The position numbers were made by a program, and so were the translations under genes. From positions 24,427,504 to 24,491,503 of the forward strand of contig OZ037765.1 in assembly GCA_964035545.1 (NCBI GenBank): a stretch of 64,000 nt of DNA, read 5' to 3'. The notes under the pieces were generated by a model that made no database searches, was not told the origin of the DNA, and saw only the letters and a list, made by a program, of their open reading frames with translations. Shown here one piece after another: positions 26,500 through 61,906 of the stretch. Each line of letters starts with the position of its first letter. Within the stretch, counting starts at the first letter, position 1. Origin of the DNA: Bugula neritina (taxonomy: Eukaryota; Animalia; Bryozoa).

Positions 26500-27040
26500 A
26501 CCTTAGCCTTAGGTACTACTAGACTAAGACTTAGTAGCAGTAATACTAATAGTAATACTAATAGTATTACTATTACATTTACCGATTTACGATTTAGTTT
26601 ACTGAAGTGAATACATTGACATAGTGATGATGTTTATTAGTATTACACTTACAATAATAATACAGCCACAAGACCAGGTACTACTACTACTAGTACTACT
26701 ACTACTCTAGTAGTAGTACTAGCACTAGTACTACTACTAGTACTAGCACTAATACTAATAGTAATAGTAATAATAGTAATACTACTACCACTACTACTAC
26801 TACTGTACTAGTACTACAGTACCAGTAGTACTAGAAGTAGTACTAGGTCTAGTACTAGTAGTACTGGTACTACGTCTATTAGTACGTCTACTTGTAGTAT
26901 TAGTAGTAGGTAGTACTAGTAGTAGTAGTACTACTACTACTACCACTACTCAGTACTAGTAGTAGTAGTACTACTACTACTACTAGTACTAGTACTAGTA
27001 CTAGTAGGATTTAGTATTACATTTACAGTATTAGTATTTG
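26500..27040. repeat. (ACT/AGT)n and TACTAG degenerate microsatellite in the RNASEK-PLEKHF divergent intergenic region
   Basis: Dense actact/agtagt/tactag units in both orientations. Confidence 0.9.
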
Positions 27041-27807: not shown

Positions 27808-30800
27808 ATGGCCGAGAGACTTGGTAGGTGTTCCTTCTAATTTTGCTAAAAGAAAAATGAAATAAAAACTGCGATTTCAAGATTATTTTGCGCATAAAAA
27901 GATTATTTGTCATTACTAGTCGATCAATATATTGGACTTGGTATTTGACTCTTGTGTATGCACTACTTCTGTCACTCACAGTCACTGTACTGAATTAAAT
28001 CCAATAACTGAATAAATATTAGTATAACTATAACAACTACAAATTCATAAAGTTAAACAAGTACCTCATTTTGAGACTGATGTTCAACTTGAACTTGAGA
28101 TTCATATTCATATTGATATTTATATTATTATTGTTGATAATATTAATCCTGAAACTCAAGCAGCTAAATAGTAACACTAGCACTAATAGAAATACTAGCA
28201 GTAGCGCTATTAAGTATGACTATAAGTATAATTATAACTATAAGGTACTGGTAGTGGTAGTACTAGTAGTAGTAGTGATACTTATACTTATAGATCTAGT
28301 TTAATATTATACTAATACTGATGGTAATACTACTATTAAGTATTAACAGTAACTCTAATGTCTAAACCTAATAATAGTAATACTAAGTCTAATACTAATA
28401 CTAATAGTAAGTTTGCTGCTTTGAAAATGACCCTTAAATTAAATAGATTATTGGCATAATAGCTAAATAAGCTATTGCTTTTTATTTTTAATTAGTAAAA
28501 ATAATACTGCTAGTAGTAGTACTACTAATAGTAATTGGCAGCTACTAATGTGATAGTTTTGTGGATTGTGAATGAAACTAGTGCTGTTACATGCTTGTAT
28601 GAGAAACAAGGCGAGAAATAAGGTAGAATGTAGATAATCTTTATTGTAGTATAGTCCGAGTGAATCAATGGTCTTTATCCAGCGAGCTCCAGTAGTAGAC
28701 TGAACTATACTGGAACTCGCTGGCTTTTATATACATGCAGGACAAAGACATTCCTTTGTTTGCCGAGATCGGAGACCCGAAATACCGAATATCGGCATTT
28801 CGGGGATCCGAAACGCCGAATCCGGCATTTCGGTACTTCGGTATTCCGATATGCCGAGAATCGGCATATCGGTGTTTCGGAGGACCGAAGTACCGATCTC
28901 GGCAACAAAGGACACACACACACAACATAAATTTACCACACACACCCCCCATCGGAAAGCATGCTTTCCGATAAAGAGGCGTACACAACACAAACACACA
29001 ACAGGGAATGACACGACAATAAAACACACAGTTGAAAGTAACACACGAAAAAAAAATATGGTAAACATGCAGTGATAGTAATAATACAATGATAACACAC
29101 AAAAAAAACAGGGAAGATTTGTGCACACACAAAAAAACAGAGCATGAATAGGTACATGCATTACATGAAGAACTTACACATAAACAAACAAAGAATAAGA
29201 GTAGAAAAGAAAAGAAAAACTATACAAATAGTCTCAGCGGCGGTCGCCAGATCGACCCCGCTCCAGGCGGCTAACTCGTCTCCGGAGTTGCCCCAGCTCC
29301 TCTTCATATCTGCGGAGCTGCCGGCGTAACTGGTGAACCTCCTCTGCCAACTGAGCTGACGTCTGGTGCCTAGGGCGGTCGGTAGTACCACGGGCAGGAC
29401 GTCGCTGGCGGTGCGTCTGCTTCTCGCCCGCCGCCGAGGGTCGGGGGCCCAGGTCCGATGAATCGGCCCTGGCACCTGATCCGACCCGTGCCAGCATGAC
29501 CCGAAGTGGCTGGGTGGCTGCCGGTTGGGGTGTCGCGGCGGGCTCCCCTTCTTCCTCCCGAACAGGCCTACACGCGGGGAATCCCAGGGCGAGAGCAGCC
29601 CGTTTGTGGGGATCCGCCACGTGTGGCAGCACCAGGTCCCGAAATTCGGGAAAGGAGGCCTGGTCTACAGCAAACGTGTAGCCCGTGTGGCAGTGAGCTA
29701 TGCGCTGATGTCTCAACACATAGTCTCTCTGGTAGGAGAACTCCCCACACGGGCAAAACACGTTGATGTAATGCTGAGGGGCGTGTACGCGCAACCGCCG
29801 TGCAGAGGAGAATTTCCTCTTACACTCATGGCAGATGCGGTTGCCCGGCTCACCGCAAGCATCACCAATTTTTAGGTTGGTGGGTCCAGTCACCCAATAC
29901 TGGCGGGCGACCAGGGCCCGAGGCAGGGCCAGTATTGGGGAGGCATCTTCTTCTGCTGGCAGGTGGTCGCCGTGTAGGATGCCCTGCTCCTCCCCGGCCG
30001 TGAGCTGAAGCTCGACCGGTTTGGGGTCAGGGCCAACCATGGCGGAACACACCTCTGTGGAGGAGGTGGCGGCCTGCTGGCTGGTAGAAGCCGAAGCAAG
30101 GCCCGGTGGGGGAGGGGAGTCGGACCGACTGGCCTCCTCAACGTCCATTCGCTCCTCTAGAATAGATAGTAGAGGCTGTGAGAAGCCGGTCTCACTATCG
30201 CCGAAATTCGGCACAGGTGTGAATGGAGATAAGTTAAAAACCGAGGGCCGAGGTGTATCGCAGAAATTGACTGAGCCTACATCGTGATTCAACAATGTAT
30301 CAATGGCAGAGTCATCTCCGAGATCCATCTCGGCCTCCGGTCCTAAGATATCAGAACCAAGTAAATCTAGTAAAGACCAGTCTACTGTAGTTTGATTAGA
30401 CTCCGCAACTGGAGGATCTAATCTAGACGAAATACCTGATTGTGTATCTGGTAGAGTGATCCCCATAGCCGCTGATAGCGTACGGAGAATAGTGGTAAAA
30501 TCAAAATGAGTATTAGAATCAGAATTTAGTTTGAGTTGCAACTGCCGTGCGAGCTGTGTGAAGTCAGAATGAGAAATGGCCGAACCTCGTGCTTCAGAAG
30601 TTTTACCTGCTGAAGCCCGAGTCGCGTGGCCCGTGGGAATTTCCCCCGGATTTCGAGAAGACAACTCGCGTGATCGAGTGTCTTCCGAAATTCGGTCGGC
30701 CATTTCTTCTTCTTGGTGGAATTCTCCGGGGTGATGGAGGGAATTTCCAACCAAGATGGGGTGGCAGTCAGTGTGGGGGGGTCTTCCTCAGGAGGGGGCC

Positions 30801-33800
30801 CCTCCAGGTGTCCTACAGCATAGTCTGCCAGGTATCTGGGAGGTCTTCTTGGCCGCTGGCTCCTCTCAAGTGGAACAGACTCTGGTGGTGTTGGTGGCTC
30901 CTGGGCTACCCTGGTAGGGGGGTCCCCGTCTTCACCCCGTACGGGGGTGGGGGTGTCCTCCCCCGGAAAGGGTTGTGAGCCAAGGGCTTGCTGCTGTTCC
31001 TGCTCCCGCTCCGCTCTCTGCTGTCGCTCCAGCTGCTCTATCAGGGCGGCTTGCTCCTGGTCTGCCTCCCTGGGGACCATGATCTCCACCTCACGGGGCC
31101 GGGTGGCCCGTCCACGACGGTTGGGCTGACGGTGGGGCTCCAAGAGGGGTGGAGCCTGACCCACCGCGTCTGGGCTGGCATGGTAAGGTTTGAGGCGCTG
31201 CTCGCTCTGGACAGAGACCTGCCCAGAGCGCTCCACACGGTATGTGTGGTTGGGCAGCACCTCTACTACGCAGTAGGGGCCGACGAACTTGGGCTGAAGC
31301 TTAGCCGACTGTCCACGCCGCCTACGGTAACTCACCATCCAGACCCAGTCTCCCACTTGGTACAACGGGGGCTCCTCTGAGTCCTCGGTGCGGGTCTGCC
31401 ACTGCTGGGTGCGCAGCGCATCATGAGCTTTGCCCATGATGTCCATCAGACCCTCCACATATTCGTGTACCGGTGACTCGGGGGCAGGAACATGGTACGT
31501 CAGGTGTTCCGGGACCCGCGTCTCCCGGCCTAACATCAGGAAGTTTGGGGTCTCCTGCGTGGCGGAGTGTGGTGTGCTGCGGTAAGCCCGCATGATCTGC
31601 GGCAGCACCACGTCCCATTCTTCCTGACCTCGACCAAGCAGCAGGCTCCGGAGCGCGTCACCCAACATCCTGTTGTTCCGCTCGACGACTCCGTTCCCTT
31701 GCGGGTGATATGGGGTGGTCCGACTCTGGTTCACCCCCCATATCCGGCAGAGGTCTCCCATGAGCTGGGACTGGAACTGGGCACCCTGGTCTGTATGTAT
31801 CTGCTCGGGCAAACCGAGGTAACAGAATACATGTTGGTCCAGGGTCCGGGCCACCGTGGGGGCGGTGGCGTCTGGAATAGCCAGAGCATCTGCCCACCGG
31901 GTAAAGTGGTCCGTGAGCATCAGTATCCAGTTGTTTCCTCTGGCGGATAACGGCATAGGCCCGACGAGGTCTACCGCCACTACTTGCCACGGTCGACCAG
32001 CGTACAGCCGGCGTCGACCAGTGGTTTCCGTGGGGCGGCCATGCTTGCTAGCTTGGCAGACCTCGCATTGCCGTACCCGCAGTCGTACGTCCCGAGTCAT
32101 TCCGGGCCAATACCAACGCAGCCGCAGACACCTGATGACCCGACTGACTCCAGCATGAGCCTGCTTATGGGTGTCCCAGATCAGTTCCCGCCGGAGGGCG
32201 CGTGGACAGACGACGCGGTCCCTCTTCTGCTGGCGGTTGTCTGCTGCTAACGTTATCATCAGGAGGCCATCAGGACTGACCTTGAGGGCATCCCAGCGAC
32301 GACAGAGGAGTTGGAACTCAACGTCTCCCTGCCGCTGCTGTTCCTCGCTAGGTCGTCGGCCCTCATTCTTGGCCTGGAAGATGTCCGCTACCGCGCCGGG
32401 TAGCGTCTCCTGGAGTCGGCACAGCTCCTTGACGTTCTGGTGCAGAGTAGGGTTGGCGTGGAGCGCCTGGACACCGTCCTGGTGGGTTTCGGTCCGAAGA
32501 TGGCCGTGCTCCCACCGGTAGGCGGTGCCCTCCACTAGCTCTGTTTCCACGTCAAGGCGAGCGGGTCCCCCGTCCCGCTGTTCGATGTGCAGGCATTGCT
32601 TACAGTCCTCTACCGGCCGGCGGCTCATGCCGTCGGCGTTCCCATGCTTCCGGCCTGCACGGTGCTCTATACGGTAAGAGAACTCGGCAAGAATCTCTAG
32701 CCAACGAGCTACCTGGCTCGAGGGCTCTGCACGTTTACACAGCCATATCAGTGATGCATGGTCTGTTCGCAAACGGAACGATTTCCCATACAGATATGGC
32801 CGAAAGTGCTTGACCGCCTTGACTACTGCTAGGAGTTCCTTCCTAGTGGTGCAGTAGTTCTTCTCGGCGGCCGCGAGAGTCTTGCTATAGTAAGCCACGA
32901 CCACCTCACTTCCACCCTGGACTTGAGACAGGACGGCTCCCACGCTGTGGTCGCTGGCGTCGGTGTCCAGGATGTACTCCTTGGCTGGATCAGGATACGC
33001 CAGGATTGGCGCTTCCATTAGCCGTTGCTTGAGGTGGTCGAATGCCTGCTGCTCCTCCTGTGTCCACTGCCACCGGACTCCCTTGGCGGTCAGCCGATTT
33101 AACGGCTGAGCCACTCCTGCGAAACCAGGTATGTACTGCCGGTAGTACCCTACGAGGCCCAGGAATGCACGCAACTCAGGGAGGTCGCGGGGAACAGTCC
33201 ACTCCTTCACAGCTTGTACCTTCTCTGGATCGGTAGCGACCCCATCACGGCCAACCACATGGCCCAGGTATGTGACTTCTGGCTGCAGGAGTGCGCACTT
33301 GGAGGGCTTCAGCTTCAGTCCGGCTGCCCGGAGACGGTCAAAGACCTCCCGCAGACGACTGACATGAGTCGAGAAGTCTGGGGAGATGACAATGACATCG
33401 TCCAGATAGATGAGGAGGGTCTTCCAGTGTAACCCACTGAGGACTTGCTCCATGAGCCGTTGGAATGTTGCCGGAGCGGACGTTAGTCCGAATGGCAGTA
33501 CTTTCCACTTCCAGAGCCCGTCGCGAGTAATGAATGCTGCTTTGTCCTGGGCATCAGGACTGAGGGGCACTTGCCAGTACCCGCTAAGCAGATCCAAAGT
33601 ACTGAAGTACTTGCTACCCGCGAGGGCATCTAGAGACTCATCTATCCGTGGGAGAGGGTAGGCGTCCTGGATGGTGGCGTTGTTGAGTCTGCGGTAGTCT
33701 ACGCAGAATCTCCAGCTACCATCCTTCTTCTTGACCAAGACCACTGGGGAGCTCCACGCACCGTGGGCAGGCTCAATCAGATCCCGGTCCAGAAGATCCT

Positions 33801-36800
33801 GTACCTGTCGGCTCACCTCCTTCTCCTTCTCCGGGCCCAGACGTCGGGTAGGCTGCCTGATGGGAGTGGTGTCGGCTGCCAGGGGTATCTCGTGAGAGAT
33901 AACCTTAGTCAGCCCCATGTCTCTATCGCCACGACTAAAGACATCACTGTACTCCGCGAGTAGTTGAGCCAGTACTTGGCGTTCAGTACTACTCGTACAG
34001 TTTCCGCATGCTCCGTCATACAGGTCAGCCAGATGCTCCGGGACTGCTTCTCGTCTGGTGTGAGGGGGGGTTTCCCTGGTTGTCGGCCACTGTCTCCAGT
34101 GCCGGACCCACATCCGCTTCCTGGATGGAGTGGTACTTCCCCACCAGCGCTCCAGCCGATAGTTGGACAGGTTCCGTGAAGGGGTTGATGCACTGCACGA
34201 GGAGCTCTTGCCGACAATCTAGCCGATTCAGGCTGTTTGCTAGTCGGATGGCTCCGTGCGTTCCTTCAACCATCCCCAGGCCGGCGATCCCCTTGCAGTT
34301 GACTCTACATCGGAGAGTCGCCTGGGACCTCCCCGGAACTGTGCAGTCCCGTACTACCTGGACTCCGCCCACCAAGGGCCTGCCAAACTTGTCAACACAG
34401 ACAAGTTCCTTCCCAGCCATCACCACCACTGACTTCTGGAAATCCATGTGGCACTGGTGTTTCTCCAGGAAGGGCATTCCCAAGATGGCGTCCTCCTTCA
34501 GCTGGCTGACGATAAACGTCTCGTGAACTGCTTGATCACGGACGCGTCCAGGTAGTGAGATGACGCCGTAGAAAGGAATGCATGATCCGTCCGCCAACGT
34601 ACCATGCGCACCTTCATACGGCTCGAGGCTCGCCCGCTCTCGTGCACCAAGGGTGTCAAAGAGACGCCTACTCAGCAGGTTGGTAGTGCACCCAGTATCC
34701 AGTAGGAATGTGGCAGCTTTACCCGAAATCTTTCCGGGCAGGAAGTAGCTGCTTCCATACGGCTGGGTGCTCCTGGAGCGGTCAGTCTCTGGGGGAGACA
34801 CGACTTGGGTCCGCACAGCGGGCCTCCTCTTCGTCTTAGAGACAACGGGGGTTTTCTGAGGTCGGGAGGGTAGCTTGGGATACTCTTGCGAGTAAGCTGA
34901 ATCCTCCTCCACAACCTCCTCGGGCAACCCCGCGAACCGGTTACGGAGTGGCCAGGCTGGAGGATCGGGTAGACCTTGCGGCCTCCGAGATCTCCGAGGT
35001 GCCTGCCATCCGGTTTCTTCTAGTTCCATCCGGGTATCGAGTGGCAGGGCAGGAGGATCGGGTAGGCCTTTCGGTCTCCGAGATCTCCGGTTTGCGTGCC
35101 ACTCGATATAGGTCGACTCTGGAGAGGTCTCTTCTACTGTCTTCCGAGTCCTATCCCGGACCGGATTGGCATGGGGCCCACGGGTGGCGGAATTCACCGT
35201 GAGCCTCGGGTGTTTAAAGGCTTCTGTCCCTTAGGGCAGTGCCTTCTCACATGTCCTGGCATCCCGCACTCCCAGCAAGTGGGCATAGGGGGGCGGACAG
35301 GGTCGTCCCGCGAGCGGGGAGCCCGCCTGTCCGTCTGGTTGCGCTGCAACTCCGTCACTGTAGCCTGCAGGCCTTTCATCATGCTCATCAGCATGTTGAG
35401 CTGCGTCTGCTCAGGTGACGGGGTAGCTGCTGCTGCCACTTGTGGGGTTGGGGGTATCTCTTCTGCATCTCCGGCCACCTGGCGAGCTGCGTAGTTCGCC
35501 CTCCGTGGCTCTTCCACCTGGAAGTAGGCCTTCCCCATCTCTAGTGCTTCGTCCAGGCTCTTGACTTTTGCGGCTAGCCAGTACCGCTGGAGGTCCGGGT
35601 GGTTCACACTCCGGAAGAACGCGTTAAAAACGAGGCGCTTCCGATCGTCGCCAGTGGCGTGACCGAAAGCAGCCTGAGCCAGGCGCTCTACCTCGTTAGC
35701 GTGATCTTCCAGAGATGTCCTTCGGTCTCTCCTCATCACTTGTAGCTGGTCTGACGCCTCTTCCGTGGTCAACCCGAACCGGGCCCTAAGAGCCCGCAGG
35801 ATGTGGGCTTCGTCGGGTCCCAGTGCGAAGTTCCTGGCCCGGCCTGTCAGACAGGCCCGGAGTTGGAGGACGCGCACCCGTACTGGCCATTCAGCGGTGG
35901 CGGCCACGTCCTCGAACTCCTTGATGAACTGTTCCACGTCTCCATCTCCTCCGAAAGTCGGGGGCTGGAGGCGATACCTGTCACCAGGTGCTGCCTGTCC
36001 TTGCCCCCGCAATCCCTGGAGGGCTGTGACCAGCGCCTCAATAGTGAGGGCTGGTGGTGCTGCTGCCTCAGGGGCTGGGTCCCCTGGGGCCATCCTATTT
36101 CTCTTAGCAACTAGCTATTCGTAGAATCCCACCGCTGCCACCAATGTGATAGTTTTGTGGATTGTGAATGAAACTAGTGCTGTTACATGCTTGTATGAGA
36201 AACAAGGCGAGAAATAAGGTAGAATGTAGATAATCTTTATTGTAGTATAGTCCGAGTGAATCAATGGTCTTTATCCAGCGAGCTCCAGTAGTAGACTGAA
36301 CTATACTGGAACTCGCTGGCTTTTATATACATGCAGGACAAAGACATTCCTTTGTTTGCCGAGATCGGAGACCCGAAATACCGAATATCGGCATTTCGGG
36401 GATCCGAAACGCCGAATCCGGCATTTCGGTACTTCGGTATTCCGATATGCCGAGAATCGGCATATCGGTGTTTCGGAGGACCGAAGTACCGATCTCGGCA
36501 ACAAAGGACACACACACACAACATAAATTTACCACACTAAGTCTAAAAGTATCTACGTTAGTAGTAGGTGATAATAGTAGTCTAATGGTTATTTTGAAAC
36601 TGAATCACACTCACAATGGCAATACCAATAGACATGTTAATGAAACTTTATAATTATAATAATATTACTAATGCTTAATTATTTGATAATATTATTTTAA
36701 TAATAGTATTAATAGTTATGGTATTTAAACTTGTTAGTGGTATGGTTTTATTATATATTTAAATAGTAGTTTTTATAGGGTAATGATTCATAAAATGAAA

Positions 36801-39800
36801 TTTGCTTCAAAATATGTATTTTGTGTTGAAGCATTGAATAAGTTTTGTGGTTTTCTCATTACTATTACTTACAAAAATTCTATTGGTTTCTCTCCAGCTC
36901 CAATCATGTGGCTGATCACATTAACCTAAACTAATGGTATTTTAGTCAAAACCAATTTTGACGCATTAACGTCAAACTAATGTATATAGATAAAAATCAA
37001 AGGGTTTTAAGTTAATTAACTTCATGCCAGTGAACTACCACAAATTACTTCAGGCTTTAGAAAAGGCTCTTGGTGGGCAATGTTACTTCAATCAAAATCT
37101 TTAATTTCCAAAAATCATCAACGATTTTAGTGGAAATCTGTGATTCATTATAGTTGTTGAAACTATTATTTAGCATTATTAGTACTAGTTGCGAACGCTT
37201 TTAATTGATTAAAAATATGAATTTCAAATTGAATAATTGTATTTAAAATATACTTGTATTTTGTGCATGGATATTACTATACATACTTTTATCGATATGA
37301 AGTTATTTGTATATGGTGTATTGTACAATACAGCAGTGAGTTTTATTACCAATTTTTTAAATCAGTTCTTCACTTTAAGTTATATTTCTTTAGCCAACAG
37401 TGAGGCAAATAGAAAAAGAATACAGTATATTGAACAGTGTTTTGGCAACTCTGGTGAGGTTAGTATTGAATTTCCTCTTTTCATTTCAAGTCAAATGTTT
37501 TTGTAAAATAGGGTAACAAGCCAACTTGTTCACGCATCTATTTTATGTTCTGCTTCAATGATTGTATTTGCTTAATTTTATGCTGCGCTTTGCTATAAGA
37601 TTAATTTGAATAAGTATCTTAAGATAGATGATAACTCTCAGACAACATTTGAAATTTGTCTTTAGTGTGAATATTTTTCTAAAATAATAATTATGGACCA
37701 CAATTACCTTGCAAGTATAAATGTGCAATGTTTATAAAATTAGTTTCATCTCATTAAATTTTTGTAGTCTATTTATTAGACTTTGATATTTCTATTGGGC
37801 TAGACTTTGTTACCAGGATAAAAAGTCACTTGCACATTAACCATAAATTTGTGATGAACTTTCTATTCTTTATATACAAGGAAGTATTACCATACTTTTT
37901 GCTGTGTTATAGTATCTGTTATCAGATGTGTTTTATGTAGCAATAAGTGAAATGAGCTCATATGTTAGTTATTTATTCATGACATCAACTTCTGAATACC
38001 TTGTGATTATTAGTAAACATGTTGTATATGTAGGCCTTTGATTTACTCCAATTATAGTTGTTGACTATTCACTCTTTTAGCCGTTGCTGGTACCTGGGAG
38101 AGTGCTTGTAGGTGAAGGGGTTCTCACAAAACTATGCAGAAAAAAACCAAAGCCTAGACAATTCTTTTTGCTCAACGATGTGTTAGTTTATGGCAACGTA
38201 GTTATTAATAAAAAGAAGGTAGGTTCTACTTCCTTTAGGCACTAATAATTTTAGTGTGACTCAACTGATCACTAGAATACATCTCACTTGAAAAAAGCCA
38301 CATTGACATGTTTTGTTCTGCCATTTTGCTCTGCCAATAATGTCATGATGGAGACAATTTACAGAAATAACATTTGCGTAAAAACTGCAAAACCTGCTAC
38401 TCTTGAAAATTATTTAGATATCAACATAATATGTTTTCAATAATAACAATCCCTACTTGTTGCGGCCTTTTTCACCATCTTCTTATGTAGTAATCTACGC
38501 CACGATTGATTTAATTTTATGTTGATTCCTTTAATGTTTTAAATTGCCTTTTAAGTGGTTTCTTTTTTTAGTGGCAGAGAATTTGAATTGTAATTTTGTT
38601 TCTATTAGTTTATATTTGAGCTGCATTTGCTTGCTTGCTGTTACAGTACAATAGACAGAAAATATTACACTTGGAAAATGTTCGAATACAATCACATCAT
38701 GATATTGGAGAGCTGAAAAATGGTTGGCAAATCTTTAGTCCAAGTAAATCTTTTGTTGTATTTGCGGCCACTGCAACAGAAAAGACGGAATGGATGGCAC
38801 ATATAAATAAATGTGTTCAGGATTTGTTGACTAAGAGTGAGTAGCTTTTATATTCAGTGACTATTTTCAGCTTATGCTTCTAATATAAAGTTGTGTTGTA
38901 CTAATTTTTACCTGGATCATGTCACTGGTTTTTCAATAAAAGTCCATTTTGTTGTTTTGTTGGGTTTTCTGCTATCAAAGATTAATAATTTGATCTTATT
39001 TATGCTATTTCTACTAATTAGATAATAGCGTAACAGTAAGGGTATATATCAACATTTCTTTTATCAAAATATAGGCGGAAAAACTCCCAGCTTAGAAACT
39101 TGCCCTGTTTGGATTCCCGATTCTGAAGCCAACGCGTGCATGATATGCAATACACCCTTCACAATTCTCAATCGCAGAGTTCGTATTTTATTAAACAATA
39201 TTCGAGTTTATATCAGCTATAGCAGTATTGGCTACCATTTTTTTTTGCAGCCATATATATTTTGTAATATGATAATTTTGTGAAAAAGTCCATCAGGCCT
39301 ATTTGTTTATTATGCAAACTGGAACACTTGGCGCCATGTTATTACTATATTATATAATATTGGATACAGGCATTGACATTATAATATATACACTGTATAT
39401 ATAAGTCAATCCGTGAAAAAAAAATCTATTTTGGGATTTTCTCCAAAACGTGGCACAATGATTGATCATAGCAATGCAAGAAACTGATGATTCTATTAAA
39501 GCATAGTTGAAATTTGTACTGATTTAAACTATGCTGAAAGCTGAAACCATTCTAGGAATCACAAACTTTGCATACTGTAAAAAGCTTAGATCGGTGATGT
39601 TAATCTACTACAGAATACCTATTGCTGAGTATCTCTAATGTCTTTTGGTAGCATCACTGCAGGAAGTGTGGGAAGGTAGTCTGTGACGACTGTTCTAAGC
39701 AGAGGTGGTCGTTTCCTCAGCAAGCTAAACAACCCCAGAGGGTCTGTGATAACTGCTTCAAGGAGCTGGAGTCGTCTACACATGGTAAGTTGACACCGTG

Positions 39801-40235
39801 GCTGTTGCTTTATGTTGGTCTAACTTTCCAACCCTTGAGATAACATTCGGCAGCACTTTATTCGGATTTGTTTTTTACAGCTGCCAACAGCGTGTCTAGA
39901 GTTCCCCAAAATGACTCTGACGATTCGGATGACTCTGATGAGGACGATGAACTGCCACCTTCCAATGATGATGAGGTGAGCTGCCTATCCTATGGCATTA
40001 TCACATCATATATTATCATATTACATATTATATATTACATATTATCACATCATATATTATTATATTGGAGTCAACAATGGGTTTTATGGTGTATTGTATT
40101 TACAGGTTGCTAAGCGATTAGAATATAATTTATATAACAATATTGGCTTTTTAAATGGTGTGTCCTTTTGTTGATGTGATGTCTAGTGTCTGAAAATGTT
40201 TGTAGGCACGGTTTTATGATGGGCGTAGGAACTGA
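27808..40235 (+). CDS. PLEKHF2: PH + FYVE domain protein Phafin (exons 27808-27823, 37394-37458, 38081-38218, 38647-38836, 39075-39178, 39652-39784, 39881-39975, 40206-40235)
   Basis: MAERL|ANSEANRKRIQYIEQCFG...GRVLVGEGVLTKLCRKKPKPRQFFL...AATATEKTEWMAHINKC...WIPDSEA..C..C...RR|HHCRKCGKVVC...RVCDNC, with a poly-Asp tail. All junctions GT-AG and in phase. Intron 1 contains the Gypsy element. Confidence 0.93.
28549..28940 (-). repeat. 3' LTR (392 bp)
   Basis: Identical by eye to 36145-36536. AATAAA on the minus strand at 28640-28645. Adjacent G-rich PPT GGGGGGTGTG at 28941-28950. Confidence 0.97.
29234..30703 (-). CDS. Retrotransposon extra ORF (ORF3): putative zinc-finger / leucine-zipper protein, 489 aa from ATG 30703 (frame open from ~30786)
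   Basis: CHECKRKFSSARRLRVHAPQH fits C-x2-C-x3-F-x5-L-x2-H-x3-H. Second finger CPC-x12-H-x4-H. Heptad LAEEVHQLRRQLRRYEEELGQLRRRVSRL. Acidic region DWSLLDLLGSD. No signal peptide or TM segment. ATG in gaaATGG context. Confidence 0.8.
   Translation of the reverse strand: MADRISEDTRSRELSSRNPGEIPTGHATRASAGKTSEARGSAISHSDFTQLARQLQLKLNSDSNTHFDFTTILRTLSAAMGITLPDTQSGISSRLDPPVAESNQTTVDWSLLDLLGSDILGPEAEMDLGDDSAIDTLLNHDVGSVNFCDTPRPSVFNLSPFTPVPNFGDSETGFSQPLLSILEERMDVEEASRSDSPPPPGLASASTSQQAATSSTEVCSAMVGPDPKPVELQLTAGEEQGILHGDHLPAEEDASPILALPRALVARQYWVTGPTNLKIGDACGEPGNRICHECKRKFSSARRLRVHAPQHYINVFCPCGEFSYQRDYVLRHQRIAHCHTGYTFAVDQASFPEFRDLVLPHVADPHKRAALALGFPACRPVREEEGEPAATPQPAATQPLRVMLARVGSGARADSSDLGPRPSAAGEKQTHRQRRPARGTTDRPRHQTSAQLAEEVHQLRRQLRRYEEELGQLRRRVSRLERGRSGDRR
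30526..34075 (-). CDS. pol: Pol: reverse transcriptase, RNase H, integrase
   Basis: RT: WSSPVVLVKKKDGSWRFCVDYR, LPFGL, YLDD. RNase H: LDTDAS, TRKELLAVV, TDH. Integrase: H-x3-H...C-x2-C, VAVD / HTDQG / VERNNR (DDE), GPY motif. Confidence 0.96.
34025..35218 (-). CDS. Protease ORF (aspartic protease plus downstream spacer domain), entered from gag by -1 frameshift
   Basis: FLLDTGCT active site and AILGMPFL motif. The frame is -1 relative to gag and is open from the TTTAAAC heptamer. Confidence 0.9.
   Translation of the reverse strand, partial: FKHPRLTVNSATRGPHANPVRDRTRKTVEETSPESTYIEWHANRRSRRPKGLPDPPALPLDTRMELEETGWQAPRRSRRPQGLPDPPAWPLRNRFAGLPEEVVEEDSAYSQEYPKLPSRPQKTPVVSKTKRRPAVRTQVVSPPETDRSRSTQPYGSSYFLPGKISGKAATFLLDTGCTTNLLSRRLFDTLGARERASLEPYEGAHGTLADGSCIPFYGVISLPGRVRDQAVHETFIVSQLKEDAILGMPFLEKHQCHMDFQKSVVVMAGKELVCVDKFGRPLVGGVQVVRDCTVPGRSQATLRCRVNCKGIAGLGMVEGTHGAIRLANSLNRLDCRQELLVQCINPFTEPVQLSAGALVGKYHSIQEADVGPALETVADNQGNPPSHQTRSSPGASG
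35170..35218 (-). other. Programmed -1 ribosomal frameshift signal (U_UUA_AAC, 6-nt spacer, stem-loop)
   Basis: Gag frame CCT TTA AAC; heptamer at 35218-35212; downstream GGCUCACGGUG-aauuccgc-CAC(C)CGUGGGCC hairpin; the -1 frame continues into the protease. Confidence 0.85.
35194..36093 (-). CDS. gag: Gag (capsid plus CCHC nucleocapsid knuckle), 299 aa
   Basis: PPTFGGDGDVEQFIKEFE...W...LRACLTGRA capsid-type motif; CWECGMPGHVRRHC zinc knuckle. Confidence 0.93.
   Translation of the reverse strand: MAPGDPAPEAAAPPALTIEALVTALQGLRGQGQAAPGDRYRLQPPTFGGDGDVEQFIKEFEDVAATAEWPVRVRVLQLRACLTGRARNFALGPDEAHILRALRARFGLTTEEASDQLQVMRRDRRTSLEDHANEVERLAQAAFGHATGDDRKRLVFNAFFRSVNHPDLQRYWLAAKVKSLDEALEMGKAYFQVEEPRRANYAARQVAGDAEEIPPTPQVAAAATPSPEQTQLNMLMSMMKGLQATVTELQRNQTDRRAPRSRDDPVRPPMPTCWECGMPGHVRRHCPKGQKPLNTRGSR
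36124..36143 (-). other. Primer-binding site complementary to the tRNA-Leu (AAG/UAG) 3' end
   Basis: Plus strand reads GAATCCCACCGCTGCCACCA, the 3' end plus CCA of metazoan tRNA-Leu(AAG/UAG) as recalled; 1 nt inside the 5' LTR boundary. Confidence 0.88.
36145..36536 (-). repeat. 5' LTR (392 bp)
   Basis: TG...CA ends, adjacent to the PBS, identical to 28549-28940. Confidence 0.97.
36294..36327 (-). promoter_or_regulatory. LTR core promoter: TATAAAAG (36327-36320) plus initiator TCAGTC (predicted +1 at 36297)
   Basis: TATA lies 30 nt upstream of the Inr A. The same pair is conserved in the solo LTR (43623-43616 and 43597-43592, 28 nt). Confidence 0.75.
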
Positions 40236-42324
40236 TGGAGGACACTTGAAATGCCACTTGTTTTAGAGATTACGTTTAATTATTGCCATTGATTACTTTT
40301 GTTACATACTGCCCCTTTTTCAGAGTCTATAACATTTTTTACAGTTTAGTACTGCTAAGTTAACTAGTTTTTTATTGGCCGAGTGTCTGAACAAGTTATA
40401 AATTGTAAATAATTGTCTGTGGATTGGCTGGATGGGTGTGATGGAGTTATCTATGAAGCTGATGTTATTTTTTGTTGGCATATGTCTTGGCTTGATCTTG
40501 CAAAAGTTTTATTCTTGTTGATTTATGCTAAATAAATATTCCGGTACATTTGACGTTAATTTTCTATGATATTATGTATATATAATATTATATTTTGTGA
40601 TTTAATTTTCTTTGAATAGCTTTGATCAATAAAAGTATGTATGATTTGGTTAGTAATTTAGAACTACTGAGTACCTTTTATTTTAATTTTTTGGTTTGTT
40701 CTAAGAATTTCAGTCAAATTGAATCAAACGTTCTACAAGATTGCAAGAAACTCTTTACAAAAGCGCATTGGGCACATGTTGGAAGGTTTATTTACACATT
40801 TAATATTGAACACTAATAAAAGTGCCCTTTATAGTAATAAGTGTTTTGTGATTTCTTTTGTGCATTGATCATCAGAAGAAAAGCAATAAATGCAACATTT
40901 CCGTGATAAAAATATGTGATCAAATCAAAGGACCCCAAGAATTTGTAATGCAATCTTCGATTTATACCAAAAACATAAACACAAGGCATCTTACAATCCT
41001 GGTTCTGCTTAATTAAATATGAAACAAGAGTTTTCATTTTTGAAGATAGTGCTCACATCATTCAAACCAAAAACTTAAATTTGTATGCTTCACTATAAAT
41101 TATCTGCATGTGTGCTATCCAGTAGTAAAACTGAAATGGTGGATGTTGTAGAGGAGAAGTGAGTGTTCACCTGTTTGGCAAATAAAAGAAATTTGGTCTC
41201 CTTTTATTCCAATAATTTGATTAGCATGTTCTTTTGCTATAACTTGCATCTAATTGCCTATTTTTAAAACACTTGAAATGTAGACTAGAAAACTTCATTC
41301 AATTATAAGCTATGCCACTGAACTGAAACTGGGTTATTGTTCAATGAGCTATGCTTAGCAATTAATATATAGAGTTATCTTCCCAATAACTGTAACATCT
41401 TCAGCGCTAAAACCCGACAGCCAATTACTTGCAAGACTAGTGCAAAGTGCGTTCTAGTAATGTTTATTCATTGCCAAGCTTAAAATTTTACACCTTGTAG
41501 TTCTAATGCACTGTTGAAGTTTAATTTTTTGTTTGACATTTTCTGTCCGCAATGATTGGTGTTTTAGTTTTATATTTTGATTTGGTAGTACTGTAATAAC
41601 TAAAATATGCATTTTATAACAAATACTTGGCAATCATATTTACGTTGTGCTTTTTTGCCATATAATCGTAATGATACTAACACTATTAGTATTAGTATTA
41701 GTATTAGTATTACTATTACTATCTACTTCCAGTATGACTAATATCAAGTATGAGTATTTGTAAGAGTATCACTGCATATACATAGCGAAGCTAAAGTAAA
41801 AATTTTGTCAGAACCAATTTTAGTTAACCTTTGATTTTAAATTTTAGTTTAAATCAGTAGCTAACCGTTATTACATACTAACAAATAATTTATTTTGCTG
41901 AATCAAATGTAGCACTGCTTTTACTCTATTACTATTAGTATTTGCGAAGAAGACAAATGGATAATGATGCCCCATTCAAGATATTAGACTTAGAGTGATA
42001 TATAAAGCATTTAGTTGCATATTTGATATAACTATTTGTTCTTCATTATTATTTAAATGTGCATTGAAAATTAAAAAACAACTTGTAAAAGTTAAATTAA
42101 TTTACATATACTCTTCGGTCTTTTTGTGCATCACTAGTTCTTCTCTTCCTAAGTCTGATATATATAATATTTTAATTTAAAACTGCTGAAAAAAATATTT
42201 CTAATTTGCTGTTGCATTCTTATTACGTACTTTAGAAAATATTTGTTAGATGGAAAGAAGCTTGCAGGAGAGATATCCTTTTTTGCATAAAGAAAGACTT
42301 TGGAACTGAAATTAGTTTTCTAAT

Positions 42325-45300
42325 ATGGCTCGTGGTCTTCTTGCTGATGACTATTTAGGTAAGGATGAATAACTTCTATATAAAAAAACTTTTTAATTTA
42401 AAGTTTTTAAGCTTATAAGATTAAATTGCAACATTATACTTAAATTTTAAAGATAGCTTTTACATTTTCTTGTACCTTTATCATGTGACATTTTGGTTTA
42501 ATATGTCTACCTGAAAGAACAAAAATATGTATGTGGTACTTTTATGTTAGTTAGAAAAAATAGTTACGAGTGTCATGTATGTAATGTATGTATGTATGTA
42601 ATTAATGGCATGCAAGTGATATATTGTATATTTTTCCAGCATATCACAACATACTGACATATATAGAAGATGCTACAGCTCAATTGCTACGATATAGAGC
42701 TGATATTCAAGCAAAAATAGATGTTAACAAGTTTTTTGCTAGCTAGTAAGTTTTCAGTTGGTTTTTTCGTATTCAGAAATATTGTGTTTTAAACCATTAA
42801 TAATACGTTTTATTGTGTACTCATATAATATGTCGTCAATAGCACAGAAAAATTTTATTCCATGAATAATCAGCGAAATAATTTTTAGAGTTTTTGGGTA
42901 AACAAATTAATATAATACAAATGTTTTTTTGTCCAACATGGCGTTTCTATTGAAATATTTGTTTTTAAATATAGATCTCCATCAATAGAAAATTATAATA
43001 TTTTGTGCTAAGGATTTTCAACTTTACAGCAACAAATCTTTACTGCCATGTTTTTAAATAATCACAAAAGCATCAAGAGTGTTTTTTTTACCAGTTTGTG
43101 GACTGACTGTATAATTATTTAAATATACACCTGTAAACCAAATATATTTGTTACAAAACAAGGTGCTAATTTTTAAAATTTTAATTGCTGATTTTATTTA
43201 AATTAACAAAGTCTAAATGTCATTAAGAAACGTGTTGCATTGAGTCAGCTGTTGTTTAACTTATATTTTAGTTTTACATGTTTAAAAGAGGGGAAGCATG
43301 CAATTTTTCGAGAATTTGAATTTATCAACTCAACTCCATATAACAGAGCTTGCTTTGTTGACACATTTCACAAATGCTTTGCTGCATTAGGAAAGAAAGG
43401 AGGTTGGTAGCGGACTTATTATTGCTAGATTTTTTGAAACAATGTGTAGTAGATTTGTGGGTTATAGAATGAAATCAGGCAGAGAACATAACTCCTTGTT
43501 ATAGAAGAGACAAGAGAGAGAGGTTGCCGTGTGCTTGCAGTACTCTATTATAGTAGAGAGAAGTGTCCAGTGTGAGCTCCAGTCCGCAAGTGACTGAAGC
43601 TCTAAAATGCGTGTCCTTTTATACTGGTAGAACAAAGGACCTCTAGAACCTTCCACCGACAGCGGGCCGATGTTCGGCAGGGGATACCGACATTCGTCAT
43701 GTCGGTAACCGACACTGGAAATATCGGTAACCGACATTCGGTCTGCCTGCATCCACCTGCCGAAATCGGTCCAACTGTCGGTTTACATGAATCAACAAAA
43801 ATGAACCCAACCAAGTGTATGCGTATTGTAACTTGTAATTGGGGGAAAGGGGATTAACTATTTACTATGTTAAAAGCTCAACATTAGCCATAGTGTTTAA
43901 GGTATTAGAAAGTTACGCTACATAATTAGCTATGATTACAGTATTTAGAAAAATAGCCATAAGTAAAGTGTCAAGGGGGATAACTCTTAATATTTACCAC
44001 AAATGTTTGTTGCTGATATATTTTGACAAAAAGGTAATTTGTATATGTTAAACTCAGATTTACTGGCTTAGCCTTTCTGCAAATTCACTGGTAACTTTTT
44101 AGATTTATTTTCATCTATTCTATGTCTTTGGTTCAGCTTTTAACAAAGTATAGAATCATTTCAACATAGATGAAGCTATTTTCATTTATAATTAGAATGT
44201 TTTTTTAAGTGAGCTTGGTCATGTTTATATATAATCTATACATAATATACTTGCACATTGTATGATTTGTTTACAGATTTGCTGGCTATAAGGGACTATT
44301 ATGCTTTAGTCTCTGTATTATGCAGTGATTTTCCATATGAGATGCTTCAGAAAACAGCAAAGATAGTACTCATTGACGATGCCCACGATTGCCTAATATC
44401 ATTTACAGACTTTCTTTATTCTTTTCAACTGCAACTGTATTATCAAGGTAATTCCAAATATTTCATAACATGGTTTTTTAAATCATATGCTTTCATGATA
44501 AGTCCATTATCTGTTGATCAGTTTTTCCCTGCTATTCAGCAAAGGCTTATGATGTATGCAAAAATACATATTATTATGTGGTGCTGATAAATGGTCTTAA
44601 ATGTAAATACAGTATGCATTGAATAACAATCTTTGTTTCCCAAACCTTTGCAATTTTATTGTGAAATTTTGTGTTCCACAGTTTATTGTGTCTTTATTTC
44701 ACAGAGTTCTTGGAAGCTTCTAGCAATACGTACCAGTCGTTACTCACTGAGAGCCACAGCCCACGAGATATTGTTGTCCCTACTGATCACACTACACAAG
44801 TTCATAAGGAGAAACAATTACCAAGCAATTCTACTCTTACAGCTACAGAAGGAGTTGATAGCATGAAATTTTACAAATCACTCAGTCAGCTGATAGATAA
44901 ATACCGATTTAGGTAATTTATATTCTTGTACATGCTTTTCAACCTCAAAACTCTCACAAAACATGAAAGCTACAGGTAAGGTGGAACTAACAGCTACTGT
45001 GTAGAAGTTTCAGAGATACATCTTATTACACACTAAAATATGATGATGTAATAATATTTTATACAGAAAAGTTTAGTATATTTACCTTGTTTGCAGTATC
45101 ACATTACCACTTGCTCTAAGCTAACAAATGTGCAATATGAACAATAACTATATTTTATGTTTCATATTGAAATGTATAAAGATACTGATGACAAACCAAC
45201 TGAAATTTGTTTTTTCATACGAATAATTTAAACTCCATTTTATTAACTTTCCAGCATACCTTCATTAGCAACTCTGAAAGAAATTCTTTCAGCTAGTCCT

Positions 45301-52849: not shown

Positions 52850-55800
52850 TATGAGTATTACTAATAGTACCATAACTTAGAACATAACCATTCTAAAAGC
52901 GACATAATGATGATGCTTTAAACAATTACTATAAGTATCCCAATGTCACTATAAAAATTAGGCTTATACTTATATGCTATAAAATTACGCTTACACTTAT
53001 TTTTCTAGTGAGAATGTGAGCTCATAAGAGTGGCTAAATTAGTCATTAAAAATAATATGAAAGTAGTTCAACAGAAAAGCTAAAGTTAGTAGACTTGCTC
53101 TTAGAATTACTCTCACTGTGAGTTTGATTCAGAGCCACATTTAATTATAAAACTAACTGAAAAACTAAGCTTAACCTAGCTGAATATGAATGTGACAGTG
53201 AAAAAATGACAGTGAGTTCACTGAGTACCAGCATGCCTATGAGTATGAAGTGGAGTATTAGCGTAACCATTATAAAATTATTCATAATTATAGTGATTAC
53301 AATTATTAGATTTAGTAGCAATTAATATAATCATTATTATTGTGATCATGATATTGATAAGCCATAATATTAATTACATTTCTCTCAATATTGAATTTGA
53401 AATTCATATAATGATTATATTTATAATAATTATCAATTTAATAACAAATATACTAACACTTTTAGTCAATAATCACAAAGCCAAGATGATGATTATAATT
53501 ATATTCATTATCATTATAATTATCGCTACGATTATGATAACTGATAAGTTAAAGGCATAAACTTAAAGTGATAATTGATCTTGATAACTCATAACTATCA
53601 ACTGGTAAGTGATAAGTCTTAGGTAAAGCCGAAAATGAAAGACTAGAATCAAAATAAAAATGACCGAAGCCCAGAGGCAAAGAGAAAGGACTAAAGGCAA
53701 AAGTTAAAACTTAAGACTAAAAAGTATTTTTTGTAAAATTTTACTTTTTATGTTACTCTTAGACTTAAGTCTTAACCCTTAGCCCTTAGGCCTTAGGGCT
53801 TAGGACTTTTACTTTAGAGTTTAGTCAAGATTTACTCCAACTCTAACAGTTAGTCTTTAGGTTAGAGTTAGACCAGCATGAGCATGATGAATTGAATTAC
53901 AGCCTACGGCTAAAGTTAAACTCAAAATTTTCACTCAAATTCATTTTCAAACTGAAACTCAAACTGTAAACTTGAAGTTAAACTTTAAAATTAAAGTTAT
54001 CCAATAATATTAATTATAAATGAATAATTATAATACAAATTTTGATCAAAAATTTTTTGTAAGCAAATCTATATTGATACAGATACATGTACTTTCAGTT
54101 CTGTAAACTTGTATTTGTATAAGTTAATTTTTATAATCATCATCCGAATCTCCCTAATCATAATGATAATGATAAGCGTTGGTGTATTTTGAGCAATTCA
54201 CAACTTCCTTTTAGCTATAGCTTGCTTTAGTAGAAGATAACTCTGAAAGCAAATGAGACAGGTTTCGCGCAACTTCCCGTAAATGAAGAGAATGCACATA
54301 TAAAGAACCTGGATGTTGCAGTTTCTCCAATAGAAAAACAGTAGTAAAAGAAAGAAAACTGCATGTTTCCCATTGTTTGTATATCAATAGATTCCTACAC
54401 CGTTTCACTTTAGCAGTTGGTTTCAAACTCGAAATATGTTTTAGTAATAATCACTTATTCTTCACTCGCTTACTTAAAATTTTTCAACGGTAATACTAAT
54501 ACCCAATCTCATATTGATAGTTGATAACTATAAGTATAAGTATTAGTACAACACTTATGACTTAAAAACTATAACTTATAATAATAATTATATTTATTAT
54601 AAATATAAGTCAGATAATACTCAATCTCATACTCATAGTGATAGTCATAGTGATAGTCATAGCCAAACTCAATCACAATGAGTATGAATGTAACTATGGG
54701 TATCACTATCAGTATCATATTGATATTATCATTATCACTCACTATCATTATGACTATACTCTAAGTCTATAACTGTAACTATAAGTATTACTATTAGTAT
54801 TAGACTTAGTGATATTCATATTGATATTGATAACGATAATCATATTCATATTAATAGTATAACTATTATTATCAATATTTTTATTAGTATTACTATTACT
54901 ATTAGAGTAATTATTAGTATTGGTACTACTAACAGTAACAGTTATATTTATAGTATTTATATTGATTTTAATTGAAATTAATTTATTACTAGACAAAATC
55001 AAGTTATTATAATTATAAGACATGACCATAAATTGATAAAACTGTCAATCACAAAGATAATGACAAATGATTTTAATTATTTTCATTTATAATATTAAGT
55101 AAGATTAAATATAATATTGATTATTGATGGTCATCAGTATTATCATAATTATTACACTAATAAATATATTATAATTAATATTATATTTATGAGTTATACT
55201 TACAGCAATAATCATTTTAATGATTTTTCTAATATCAACTTTTTTTAATAAATACTGATGTTAAATTGAAATTTAAACTCAAATTTCACTCAAAGTTGAA
55301 GCTTTAGCTCTAATAATGAAAAAGAGGAAATAAAACTTATAGTTATGCTCAATCTTATACTTGTATTCAAATTTATAGTTAGACTAGTACTTGTAGTTAT
55401 GGCGGTACTCGTTACTGATATAACCTAAATTTAAATTTAAATAAATTGCTCAGACTTTAACTTTAGGTAATTCTAGTCTTAGTCAAGTGACAACTGACAA
55501 TTATACGTTTATTCATCTTGAAATTCATATTAGACATTGATACTGGTAGGCTAGTTGTAGCAATCATAGTGAATAAGTTATTATTGCAAAGTAAGTATCA
55601 GTATGAGACAGTTGATATTAAGTTTATACTTGTAGTTATATTTATATCAGCTACGAGTCGGAGTTATCACTTTTCAGTTTTGGGTTTGAGTATTCACATG
55701 ATATATTGGAGTTTAAGGTAATCGTATAACTATAAGAGAAAGATGAACTCTGACTCTAAGTCATCTTAATAGATAAGTCATAATGATAATTATCATGTCA

Positions 55801-59200: not shown

Positions 59201-61906
59201 GCTTTAAATATCACATGCATCTGTATCAGTTTAATTATGAACATATTTTATTTTTAATATAGCTAGAAATTCATATTTGGAAGTAAGGGTTATTTCACTT
59301 GTTATTCTTATTATTTATTGTCATTGGCTTTAAATGTTCACTGGTAAATTTTTGAGTTGATGGAGAGTTGTAGTTTTTTCCAAACGTGTAGTGTTTGTTC
59401 TGTCTGATATCTGCAGTTTGAGAAGTTGTCTTCTTGAAAAATGAATTGATGTTCTAAACTCAAATCAAGTGACAATTGATTGCTAAAACTATTTTCTACA
59501 CTATTGGTAATTGAATGTAATCATGATTTTCTGGTTTAAAAACTCCATTAAAGAGACTTGCTGTCTTTCTGTTTGCAGGTCAGCAAGACTTCACAAAGTA
59601 CTGTGTTGAATGCTGAAGCATACATACTCTTCTATGGGAGACTGGAGAATAAAACCGTATATGTAAATGGAAAAGCTCCGTGCACCATTACCAGATATGG
59701 TATTTTCTAGCAAACAATATTCTTTAGCTTCTAAACTATTGTTGCACCTATTTTGTATTTGTTTTAAATAATCACTTCATTTGTTACCTTTGTATTTTTT
59801 AATTACGGCTTTCTATTTTTAGACACCAAATCATCATGCCACACCTCATCTAAAGGTAAAGTTATGATTGGGCCACAACTACCAGCTAGAAATATCCCCC
59901 CAAAAAGCCTAATCTATAAAGTAAACAAGCCAACAGCTGTTGTAGTCAATACAGGTTTACAAAGTCTTGTTCCATACCCAGAAGAGAGAGATTCCCCTGA
60001 ACGTGAGGTCAGTTTGATAGTAACTAATAGATACAACGTTTTGTTGTTAGTAACATATGATACAGCCTACTAGCAAGTAATTCTTCTTTTCTTATACTTG
60101 TTGTGTTTTTATTACGGTTGTGTTTTTATGAGGTCAGTTTGATAGTAACTAATAGATACAACGTTTTGTTGTTGGTAACATATGATACAGCCTACTAGCA
60201 AGTAATTCTTCTTTTCTTATACTTTTTGTGTTTTTATTTTACTGCTAAAGTACAATCTGATGTTTGTCTTGTTTCTTTTAAGGATGCCAGTAATGAAATG
60301 AATGCTCCCTCTCATAAAGTTGCTAAAGATATCATACGGCCGGCTCTTTCTAGCAAGTTAAATAGTTTTTCCAATTCATTGTTGAAGTTTACGCCCAGAT
60401 CTGTTGAACCAGCTGCTAAACCTAAGGTAGTCCTTGTACACGTTGATCATTTTAGTTGTACCAATATGATGTTATGTGCTTTGGGTTAAACGTGACATGA
60501 CATTATTTTGGACATCCAAGAATGCTGGTAATTTGTAATTTCTGTAATGGCCTTTTTCCACTAAAATGGGGACAGTTGCATGTATATATTTTTAAGTAAA
60601 CACTCGTAACCTTGTTTTATTGATTTAACCCTTTAGCCCATTACGTATTACATATTATTAAGCTATAGTCCAATATTAATTGAACTGGAAGTTATCTGTT
60701 ATAAAATCAACATATGACTTTGAAACCGGCCCTTTCACATTTGACATGTTTTATAAGTTGTTATAGCTATTTGATGAATGTTGCTGTTATATGTAGATGA
60801 TTCCGGAGACTCCAGCTGCTGAAAACATTCCAGATGTTGCTACCTCACACCTCACGCCCATTGAGATGGTGCACAATGGCTCTTCTCAAAAGTCCGATGG
60901 CACAACATTGATGAGTACTGATGTGGTTTCACCTTCTTGCTCTAATCACAAAACACAAACTGTCTCATATGAAGCATATACGGAAAATTCACTTCATCAA
61001 ACTGACATAGTAGTGGAGCAAAAGACTAAACAGTTAGAGCAGATTGAAAACAATGTTGGTTCAGCCAGAAAAGAAATTGACAATCATTCTTCTAAATGTG
61101 TTCAAAGTGACGAATATGACGATGACAGGCACAATGATGAGAATGTTAAAAAGTTAGCATTGTTTAAATTTAATTCTGCTGTCACTCATCGAAGCTATCG
61201 AACCTACAAAAACACTTTTGCTGACAAGACCAAATCTGATCACAGTCCCTCAGGTAGAGACTTGCCAGAAGACCACTCATCAAACAACACTAATGGTGCA
61301 TTATCTGTACATCATAGTACATCGCTAAAGCACAGTATATCACCACAGCAATGTAGCAGATCACAACATAGCAAATCACCCAGACGACGTAGTCGGTCAC
61401 AACATAGCAGATCACGACGACGTAGTCGGTCACAACATAGCAGATCACGACGACGTAGTCGGTCACAACATAGCAGATCGCGACGACGTAGTCGGTCACA
61501 ACATAGCAGATCACGGCGACGTAGTCGGTCACAATGTAGCAGACCGCGCCAGCATAGATCAGAACAATATAGCAGATCACCACTACGGCGTAGTGGATCA
61601 CCTCAACAACGGCATGAGCGATCACCCCAATCCAGTAGATCTTATAAACAGCACAGCAGATCATCTCAACACTATGGTCGCTCTTATCAAGAACATAGGC
61701 ATGGTAAAAGAAGCTATGTTGATCACACCAGGCACAAAGATGCATATTCACGCAAAGAAAGACCTTATTACGAGTCATATCAGATAGGTATGAAAGATTG
61801 TAGTCGTCAATATAAGGATCATCACAGGAGGTCAAAAGACCATGAAGATAGGAAATACTATAATTCACATCTGGTAAATGGGAAAGGCGATTCCAACAGT
61901 TGGTAG
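56212..61906 (+). CDS. USP36: Ubiquitin-specific protease of the USP36/USP42 (scrawny) family; first and last exon limits tentative
   Basis: DGLPPAK...KW....[21 protein letters not shown] (Cys box), [45 protein letters not shown] (His box), WYCMNDS, AYILFY; Arg/Ser/His-rich C-terminal exon. Confidence 0.9.
60004..60240 (+). repeat. ~110-bp tandem duplication (125-bp offset) that includes an exon-intron junction
   Basis: tgag|gtcagtttgatagtaactaatagatacaacg...cttttcttatact appears at 60004 and 60129. Confidence 0.9.
61385..61543 (+). repeat. Coding 33-bp tandem repeat (~5 copies; [11 protein letters not shown])
   Basis: Unit cgacgtagtcggtcacaacatagcagatcacga in near-identical copies. Confidence 0.9.

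Follow-up and report, generated by a model that had tools for sequence, protein, structure and literature searches.

What reads the inverted-repeat box in a solo long terminal repeat (LTR) that lies in an intron of the bryozoan Bugula neritina? The repeat occupies positions 43445-44001, on the minus strand, of the 64,000-nucleotide stretch analysed here (the window; assembly GCA_964035545.1, contig OZ037765.1, positions 24,427,504 to 24,491,503), and the same window holds a full-length Ty3/gypsy retrotransposon (28549-36536, minus strand). Both carry, in the U3 (unique 3') region of the LTR, a box of CCGA words, some of them paired into short palindromic dyads, and the full-length element also encodes a tail with fingers and a coiled coil downstream of integrase. 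We tentatively suggest, at somewhat less than even confidence, that the dyads of the solo U3 box are bound by such a finger and coiled-coil tail of Pol, which would in turn activate the LTR promoter.

The preliminary description of this DNA held that the solo LTR has low similarity to the LTR of the full-length element and yet keeps its regulatory layout, which understated the homology. There is no blastn match between the two LTRs, and their local alignment reaches z 10.6 in the same orientation (0/300 shuffles). By segment, the U5 (unique 5') end gives z 5.5, the hairpin segment around the TATA box and initiator (Inr) z 7.9 and the R/poly(A) segment z 1.2, with about 60-66% identity, including gaps, in the best-aligned parts. 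LTRs of one family are about 80% or more identical over most of their length; these two fall short of that level and lack a blastn match, which rules out a single family, and by these alignments they are two families of one lineage. The layout itself was described correctly. The minus-strand start, TGTGGTAAAT, is identical in the two LTRs. Downstream in the solo LTR come CTTTGTT (43631-43637), which we take to be an HMG-box-like site and which has CTTTGT at the equivalent place in the full-length element, the TATA box TATAAAAG (43616-43623) and an 11-bp hairpin (43574-43602; z -4.7) over the Inr-like TCAGTC (43592-43597), all on the minus strand. TCAGTC lies 28 nt downstream of the TATA start, compared with 30 in the full-length element, and from this spacing alone R presumably begins there. 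These shared features are ordinary, since conservation of the termini, TATA, Inr and poly(A) signal is general across LTR clades in the available part of one survey (PMC3601003), and TG...CA ends, a short target-site duplication (TSD) and a TATA/Inr/poly(A) layout are likenesses to solo LTRs of Ty3/gypsy elements (Metaviridae) at large.

The box is a different matter: in the same part of that survey (PMC3601003) U3 is poorly conserved save for the TATA box, whereas here a palindromic box type is kept in the U3 of two families, in both directly 5' of the TATA box. The solo box (43655-43782, minus strand), in which the previously quoted arms were found and the inner dyad lies at 43700-43714, has 12 CCGA half-sites, three exact CCGA-N2/3-TCGG dyads and 14 CpGs. 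Its counterpart (36357-36500, minus strand, and the same at 28761-28904) has 18 half-sites, four dyads and 20 CpGs. Outside the boxes the LTRs have 5 and 4 CpGs, respectively, and the host DNA is CpG-poor (observed/expected 0.40). The solo half-sites had been called mostly CCGAC, which is a plurality only (6 CCGAC, 3 CCGAT and 3 CCGAA of 12); those of the full-length element comprise 9 CCGAA, 6 CCGAT, 3 CCGAG and 0 CCGAC of 18. Aligned with each other, the boxes score z 4.7 against dinucleotide shuffles, and z 1.2 (global) or 2.2 (local) against shuffles in which the CCGA/TCGG words were preserved; the orientation of the boxes makes little difference to these scores. As far as alignment can tell, they share a word and palindromy, not linear sequence, and thus show the pattern of binding-site turnover. 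Of the proposal that the box is under selection across families, what stands is that two diverged families retain this type of box despite the turnover of its sequence. Among contigs of four public runs (X1, X2, X3 and X5) that we placed on the region, and from which insertion and copy status were also read, several match the LTR on either side of the box and not across it (43601-43796), and three runs contain a 40-bp deletion variant there. Within the family LTR, the box varies the most.

The window contains 16 CCGA-N2/3-TCGG dyads against 0.1 expected, and all lie inside the two elements: three in the solo LTR, four in each of the two full LTRs and five internally. No dyad occurs within the window in host DNA around either insertion site, and an integration target signal was therefore rejected as the role of the dyad. 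Four of the internal dyads, of the form CCGA-N3-TCGG, are in the DNA encoding the tail (at 29434, 29639, 30201 and 30685; span 29434-30695), and none is in the reverse transcriptase (RT)-integrase core. Four dyads in this 1.55 kb were reached by none of 500 dinucleotide shuffles and none of 3000 synonymous-codon permutations. The same 11-mer makes up three of them, each time in a different codon phase, and its loop is too short for an RNA hairpin; we therefore infer that the dyad is read as double-stranded DNA. At 30201 the encoded residues are compatible with the dyad in 31/47 aligned relatives, which is compatibility at the protein level rather than proof, as neighbouring residues are conserved too. 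One dyad coincides with the earliest ATG in the tail frame, where an internal promoter may lie; the fifth internal dyad, also CCGA-N3-TCGG, is at 35951 in the element's coding DNA.

The tail is encoded at 29234-30787 (minus strand), in a frame that is separate in this element and contains an acidic segment, a two-finger module (29549-29941) and a C-terminal coiled coil. This frame, previously called ORF3, has 11 close homologs and 306 matches among cluster representatives (best 150 of 306 listed). A search from the integrase side returned 381 relatives, and among the best 120 of the 381, to which all counts of Pol proteins refer, the module follows integrase in frame in 35; tails longer than 350 residues carry it in 35 of 44 cases. 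In four fragments, too, one reading frame continues past the motif at the Pol C-terminus into sequence like ORF3. The element-borne finger module is thus real and conserved, and it is not a third gene but a Pol extension in 35 of 120 relatives. An alignment of the tails had yielded no long fused forms, a result overturned by the integrase-side search. In a tree of 118 integrase rows (three of the 120 were omitted for short coverage and the window's own was added; midpoint root only), a split with support of 99 places the module in 34/93 relatives on one side and 0/24 on the other. Many of the absences are likely truncations, because several finger-less rows are near-copies of finger-bearing ones. 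By simple scores of our own, 26 of the 35 finger-bearing tails have a coiled-coil-like end and 15 of the 35 an acidic, hydrophobic stretch on the N-terminal side of the fingers (p<=0.05). No finger module was found in viral contigs, metagenome contigs or prokaryote genomes, and no Pfam family covers the module or the tail.

Two groups of relatives deserve separate mention. The nearest Pol (P0161, about 79% identical over integrase) has a 325-residue tail with a coiled-coil-like end but without the fingers, so even close kin can have lost the module or carry it in another frame. Two copies of the module each are present in an annotated bryozoan protein (P0020, with its isoform P0160) and in P0048, proteins of 499-644 residues, in which host capture of the module is possible.

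The module is predicted to fold as two fingers wrapped by extra helices (predicted local distance difference test, pLDDT, 94.6), and its nearest structures are DNA-bound tandem C2H2 fingers, at best with Z 3.5 and a root-mean-square deviation of 2.9 over 57 aligned residues. Fold searches with the whole tail returned coiled coils only, or weak finger matches. Finger 1 is a canonical C2H2 finger. In the 11 nearest homologs (38-68% identity) it has R at +3 in 9/11 and V at +6 in 11/11, and finger 2 has R-D in 8/10 and R at +6 in 9/10. Across 89 modules less than 60% identical to each other (median 25%), thinned from 121 full-length domains, finger 1 remains basic, finger 2 has R in 69% and D in 70%, and the other helix positions vary. 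The earlier idea that half-site and fingers co-evolve family by family finds no support here, as the helices are nearly invariant in the 11 nearest homologs and the shift to CCGAC is a plurality. Judged from these alignments, the conservation of the fingers agrees better with a constant CCGA core than with fifth-base tuning in each family. Co-evolution could still operate at the depth of distant lineages, where helix positions do vary.

A self-encoded activator of this kind would work as follows. The tail would be released from Pol or translated from a shorter RNA, would dimerise, and would bind CCGA-N2/3-TCGG dyads in the U3 box; the dyad-bound tail would then activate the LTR promoter, and the solo LTR's own family would have the same finger tail. 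The functional model, with no homology claimed, is foamy-virus Tas/BTas, which in the available text of PMC4929722 has DNA-binding, activation and dimerisation parts and recognises two places, one in the LTR U3 and one internal. The tail is predicted to have counterparts of these parts, and the dyads likewise fall both in U3 and in the internal region. Unlike Tas, which is a separate retroviral gene with an internal promoter, the putative activator is a two-finger unit fused to Pol in a non-enveloped Ty3/gypsy lineage.

Several observations weigh against this proposal. The solo LTR is tied to the finger tail only by kinship, and no full-length member of its family was found in the viral, metagenome and prokaryote collections scanned; a scan of metagenome contigs for the U5 pattern gave 26 loci, all chance, with no LTR or Pol around them, and a scan of viral contigs for the hairpin-plus-TATA pattern gave 0 loci. 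The structural matches of the module are weak, none with a Z of 5 or more or E<=0.001. Finger 2 is non-canonical, with C-x-C spacing, three invariant ligands and Ser in place of the core Phe, and therefore standard recognition rules may not apply. Classical tandem C2H2 fingers each follow C-x2-C...F...L..H-x3-5-H and are joined by a TGEKP-type linker. An assignment to them was rejected: finger 1 fits, but in finger 2 neither the core Phe nor an invariant fourth ligand is present, and the fold has extra helices; at most, the module would act like such fingers. The acidic stretch reaches p 0.06 in the window's own tail, and 8/48 finger-less tails score as well. As for the dyads, the spacer range was our choice, in a definition that was based on the LTR boxes and preceded the count in the tail; the site at 29639 is compatible in only 23/109 relatives, mostly near ones, and the conserved site at 30201 is explicable by protein-level constraint. 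The comparison of boxes covers two LTR families. CpG spacing tends to 5 nt in the solo box and 6 nt in the full-element box, despite near-identical fingers in near relatives, and the inverted repeats are longer than the words require (z -8 to -9), for which binding sites alone are inadequate. Lastly, the full-element box matches a known host factor well.

That host factor leads to the strongest alternative, which we consider rather unlikely. The box would be an enhancer for a host protein that reads unmethylated CpG half-sites, most plausibly a DEAF1-like SAND protein, and the tail would do something else. In the available text of PMC4274154, the DNA bound by DEAF1 consists of repeats of a TTCGGG half-site whose CpGs stand 6-11 nt apart, spacings of 6, 8 and 9 being the ones selected, and methylation blocks binding. 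The boxes resemble DEAF1/GMEB sites in their repeated, variably spaced CpG half-sites. The likeness is clearest in the full-element box, with 9 TTCGG words and a spacing of 6 nt between 12/19 adjacent CpGs, and in a host as CpG-poor as this one such a box would be a methylation-sensitive switch. The solo box differs, as it has 3 TTCGG words and prefers GTCGGT (6 contexts), and its CpG gaps are 5 nt in 5/13 cases and 6 nt in one; a spacing of 5 nt is outside the range tested in the part of PMC4274154 available. A host reader would also leave the activator-like tail that the lineage retains unexplained.

It is improbable that the box instead serves as a folded structure, such as a long hairpin at the RNA 3' end or in single-stranded cDNA with a role in packaging, strand transfer, 3' processing or small RNAs. 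Its inverted repeats do fold better than chance: the solo box reaches z -10.2 against dinucleotide shuffles, and against shuffles that keep the CCGA/TCGG words the solo and full-element boxes still reach z -8.4 and -9.1, the arms of the latter running on into non-CCGA sequence. The predicted shapes differ, however, with a single long stem in the solo box and a branched form in the full-element box, and an Rfam scan gave no match at the gathering score. A structure alone would neither keep the CCGA word nor account for the short-loop dyads in coding DNA.

More improbable still is a tail that stays on integrase and, without activating transcription, binds cDNA dyads or tethers the integration complex to chromatin in the manner of a chromodomain. 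The module is indeed fused at the integrase C-terminus, where chromodomains sit according to the available text of two reports (PMC13524379; 10.1101/2021.11.30.470311). Chromoviruses and other Ty3/gypsy elements with an integrase accessory domain likewise have an in-frame domain after integrase that is patchy along the tree; here, in place of a chromodomain or PHD, it comprises two fingers between an acidic segment and a coiled coil. The dyad-free host DNA around both insertion sites argues against a target-site signal here, and the acidic segment and a box beside the TATA box point to transcription. Very unlikely, finally, is a neutral origin of the boxes, through inverted duplications that started from an ancestral word and recurred during reverse transcription: the boxes fail to align beyond the word and family contigs have deleted or replaced boxes (joints 43662-43703 and 43602-43796), but a CpG-dense box persists at the same place in two diverged families of a CpG-poor genome, and dyads are enriched in coding DNA. 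Activation by the element's own tail and the roles proposed in these alternatives need not be mutually exclusive.

The solo LTR by itself is ordinary, and its insertion is as the preliminary description had it. It is a 557-bp repeat with TG...CA termini, belongs to a dispersed multi-copy Ty3/gypsy family, and is flanked directly on each side by an AATG TSD (43441-43444 and 44002-44005, plus strand) with the internal region absent, the features of a solo LTR; it was presumably formed by recombination of two LTRs. The host intron begins with GT at 43403, leaving 42 intron bases before the LTR, which is antisense to the host exons. In run X1, depth (summed over contigs, and no measure of copy number) rises from some 120 in the flanks to 7,900-60,000 across LTR bins, contigs with loose ends of mixed sequence stop at each LTR terminus, and the flanks match the window almost letter for letter. 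Runs X2, X3 and X5 have an approximately 93% alike locus without the insert, with a joint at 43434-44028 in all three; X2 and X3 have a second joint at 43439-44007 with six letters between, a spacing that fits a site with one TSD copy. The LTR is thus a genuine insertion, one that has not reached fixation among close kin, and the depth step and the empty site exclude a chance repeat.

The 5' part of the LTR (43783-44001, minus strand) comprises the TGTGGTAAAT terminus and about 190 bp of AT-rich U3 that the LTR of the full-length element lacks; of this segment, the terminal 10 bp alone align between the two. It lies within the family repeat depth, and the AT-rich stretch is therefore part of the family LTR. 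The U5 end (43445-43505, minus strand), conserved in the full LTR, has the peak repeat depth. At the place of the full LTR's poly(A) signal (43541-43553, minus strand) the solo copy has no AATAAA, and nearly all family depth has different letters at two sites there and at several more elsewhere in the LTR, which identifies the solo LTR as an aged copy.

The neighbouring element has identical 392-bp LTRs (28549-28940 and 36145-36536), a CTAA TSD, a primer-binding site (PBS), a polypurine tract (PPT), and, between the LTRs, gag followed by protease, RT, RNase H and integrase, the arrangement of Ty3/gypsy elements. The PBS is presumably tRNA-Leu-like; a tRNA scan gave no match. Elements of the CsRN1 clade have a 4-bp TSD and a CHCC Gag knuckle. 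The TSD length fits this clade, as does a 5' TGTGG, its 5' end in the available part of PMC3601003, but the Gag knuckle is CCHC, and the element was not placed in this clade. An errantivirus or other env-bearing gypsy element was rejected as well, as what its 3' frame encodes is a pair of fingers with a coiled coil, and this frame has no Pfam env match. By its identical LTRs the element is very young, yet the frame shifts between protease and RT (34025-34218) and between Pol and tail (30526-30787). Listed relatives are continuous where it changes frame, with protease within the Pol frame in 81/120; mutation, assembly error and a programmed shift are candidate causes. The element was inserted at the edge of a TAG/TAC-type low-complexity repeat, and such repeats are dispersed in the window (2870-3380, 26500-28540, 41650-41760 and 54500-55100).

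Host exons with an open frame and splice sites read from the sequence precede and follow the solo LTR (43272-43402 and 44277-44447, plus strand). The exons resemble CSTPP1, a presumptive name for the host gene, for which library look-ups gave no match. No RNA data set was listed as containing this stretch, which carries no information about expression. Exons at 37400-39980 (plus strand) seem to us to resemble a gene with PH and FYVE domains. A gene at 6229-15000 (minus strand), with an ion-channel exon (Pfam Ion_trans) and ankyrin-like repeats further on, is probably a TRP channel. At 60797-61906 (plus strand) there is an Arg/Ser-rich open reading frame that has no Pfam match and includes a 33-bp tandem repeat, several frames of which are open.

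To our knowledge, the transcription of Ty3/gypsy elements is taken to depend on host factors, and a DNA-binding activator encoded by the element itself is characteristic of complex retroviruses. Our literature searches, which covered open-access papers, showed no description of a finger tail or a self-encoded activator in gypsy elements, although annotation in Repbase, Dfam or GyDB may exist. The available texts of three mollusc and annelid LTR surveys (PMC6238403, PMC8556966 and PMC8220671) do not contain the word zinc, and that of an errantivirus survey (PMC13524379) does not contain zinc finger. In the accessible part of the Troyka paper (PMC12440569) the Gag knuckle is the only zinc feature, and the accessory domains named in the accessible parts of two further sources (PMC6338049; 10.1101/2021.11.30.470311) are a chromodomain, PHD, exonuclease and methylase. 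A widespread animal Ty3/gypsy lineage that has a dimeric, sequence-specific activator as its Pol tail and palindromic boxes in U3 and in coding DNA is doubtful, although a real possibility. The finger tail and the LTR dyad lend themselves to a direct test with a single domain of 130 residues and a single site of 11 bp.

If a host DEAF1-like factor reads the box, the box would be a methylation-sensitive switch, and the tail would be an undescribed integrase accessory domain that is worth recording. If instead the tail binds and activates, a retrotransposon would have arrived independently at a positive feedback loop like that of complex retroviruses, and bursts of copy number could amplify themselves. 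In that case solo LTRs would be promoters embedded in the host and responsive in trans to the element protein, and those in introns would form a network wired to a transposon protein.

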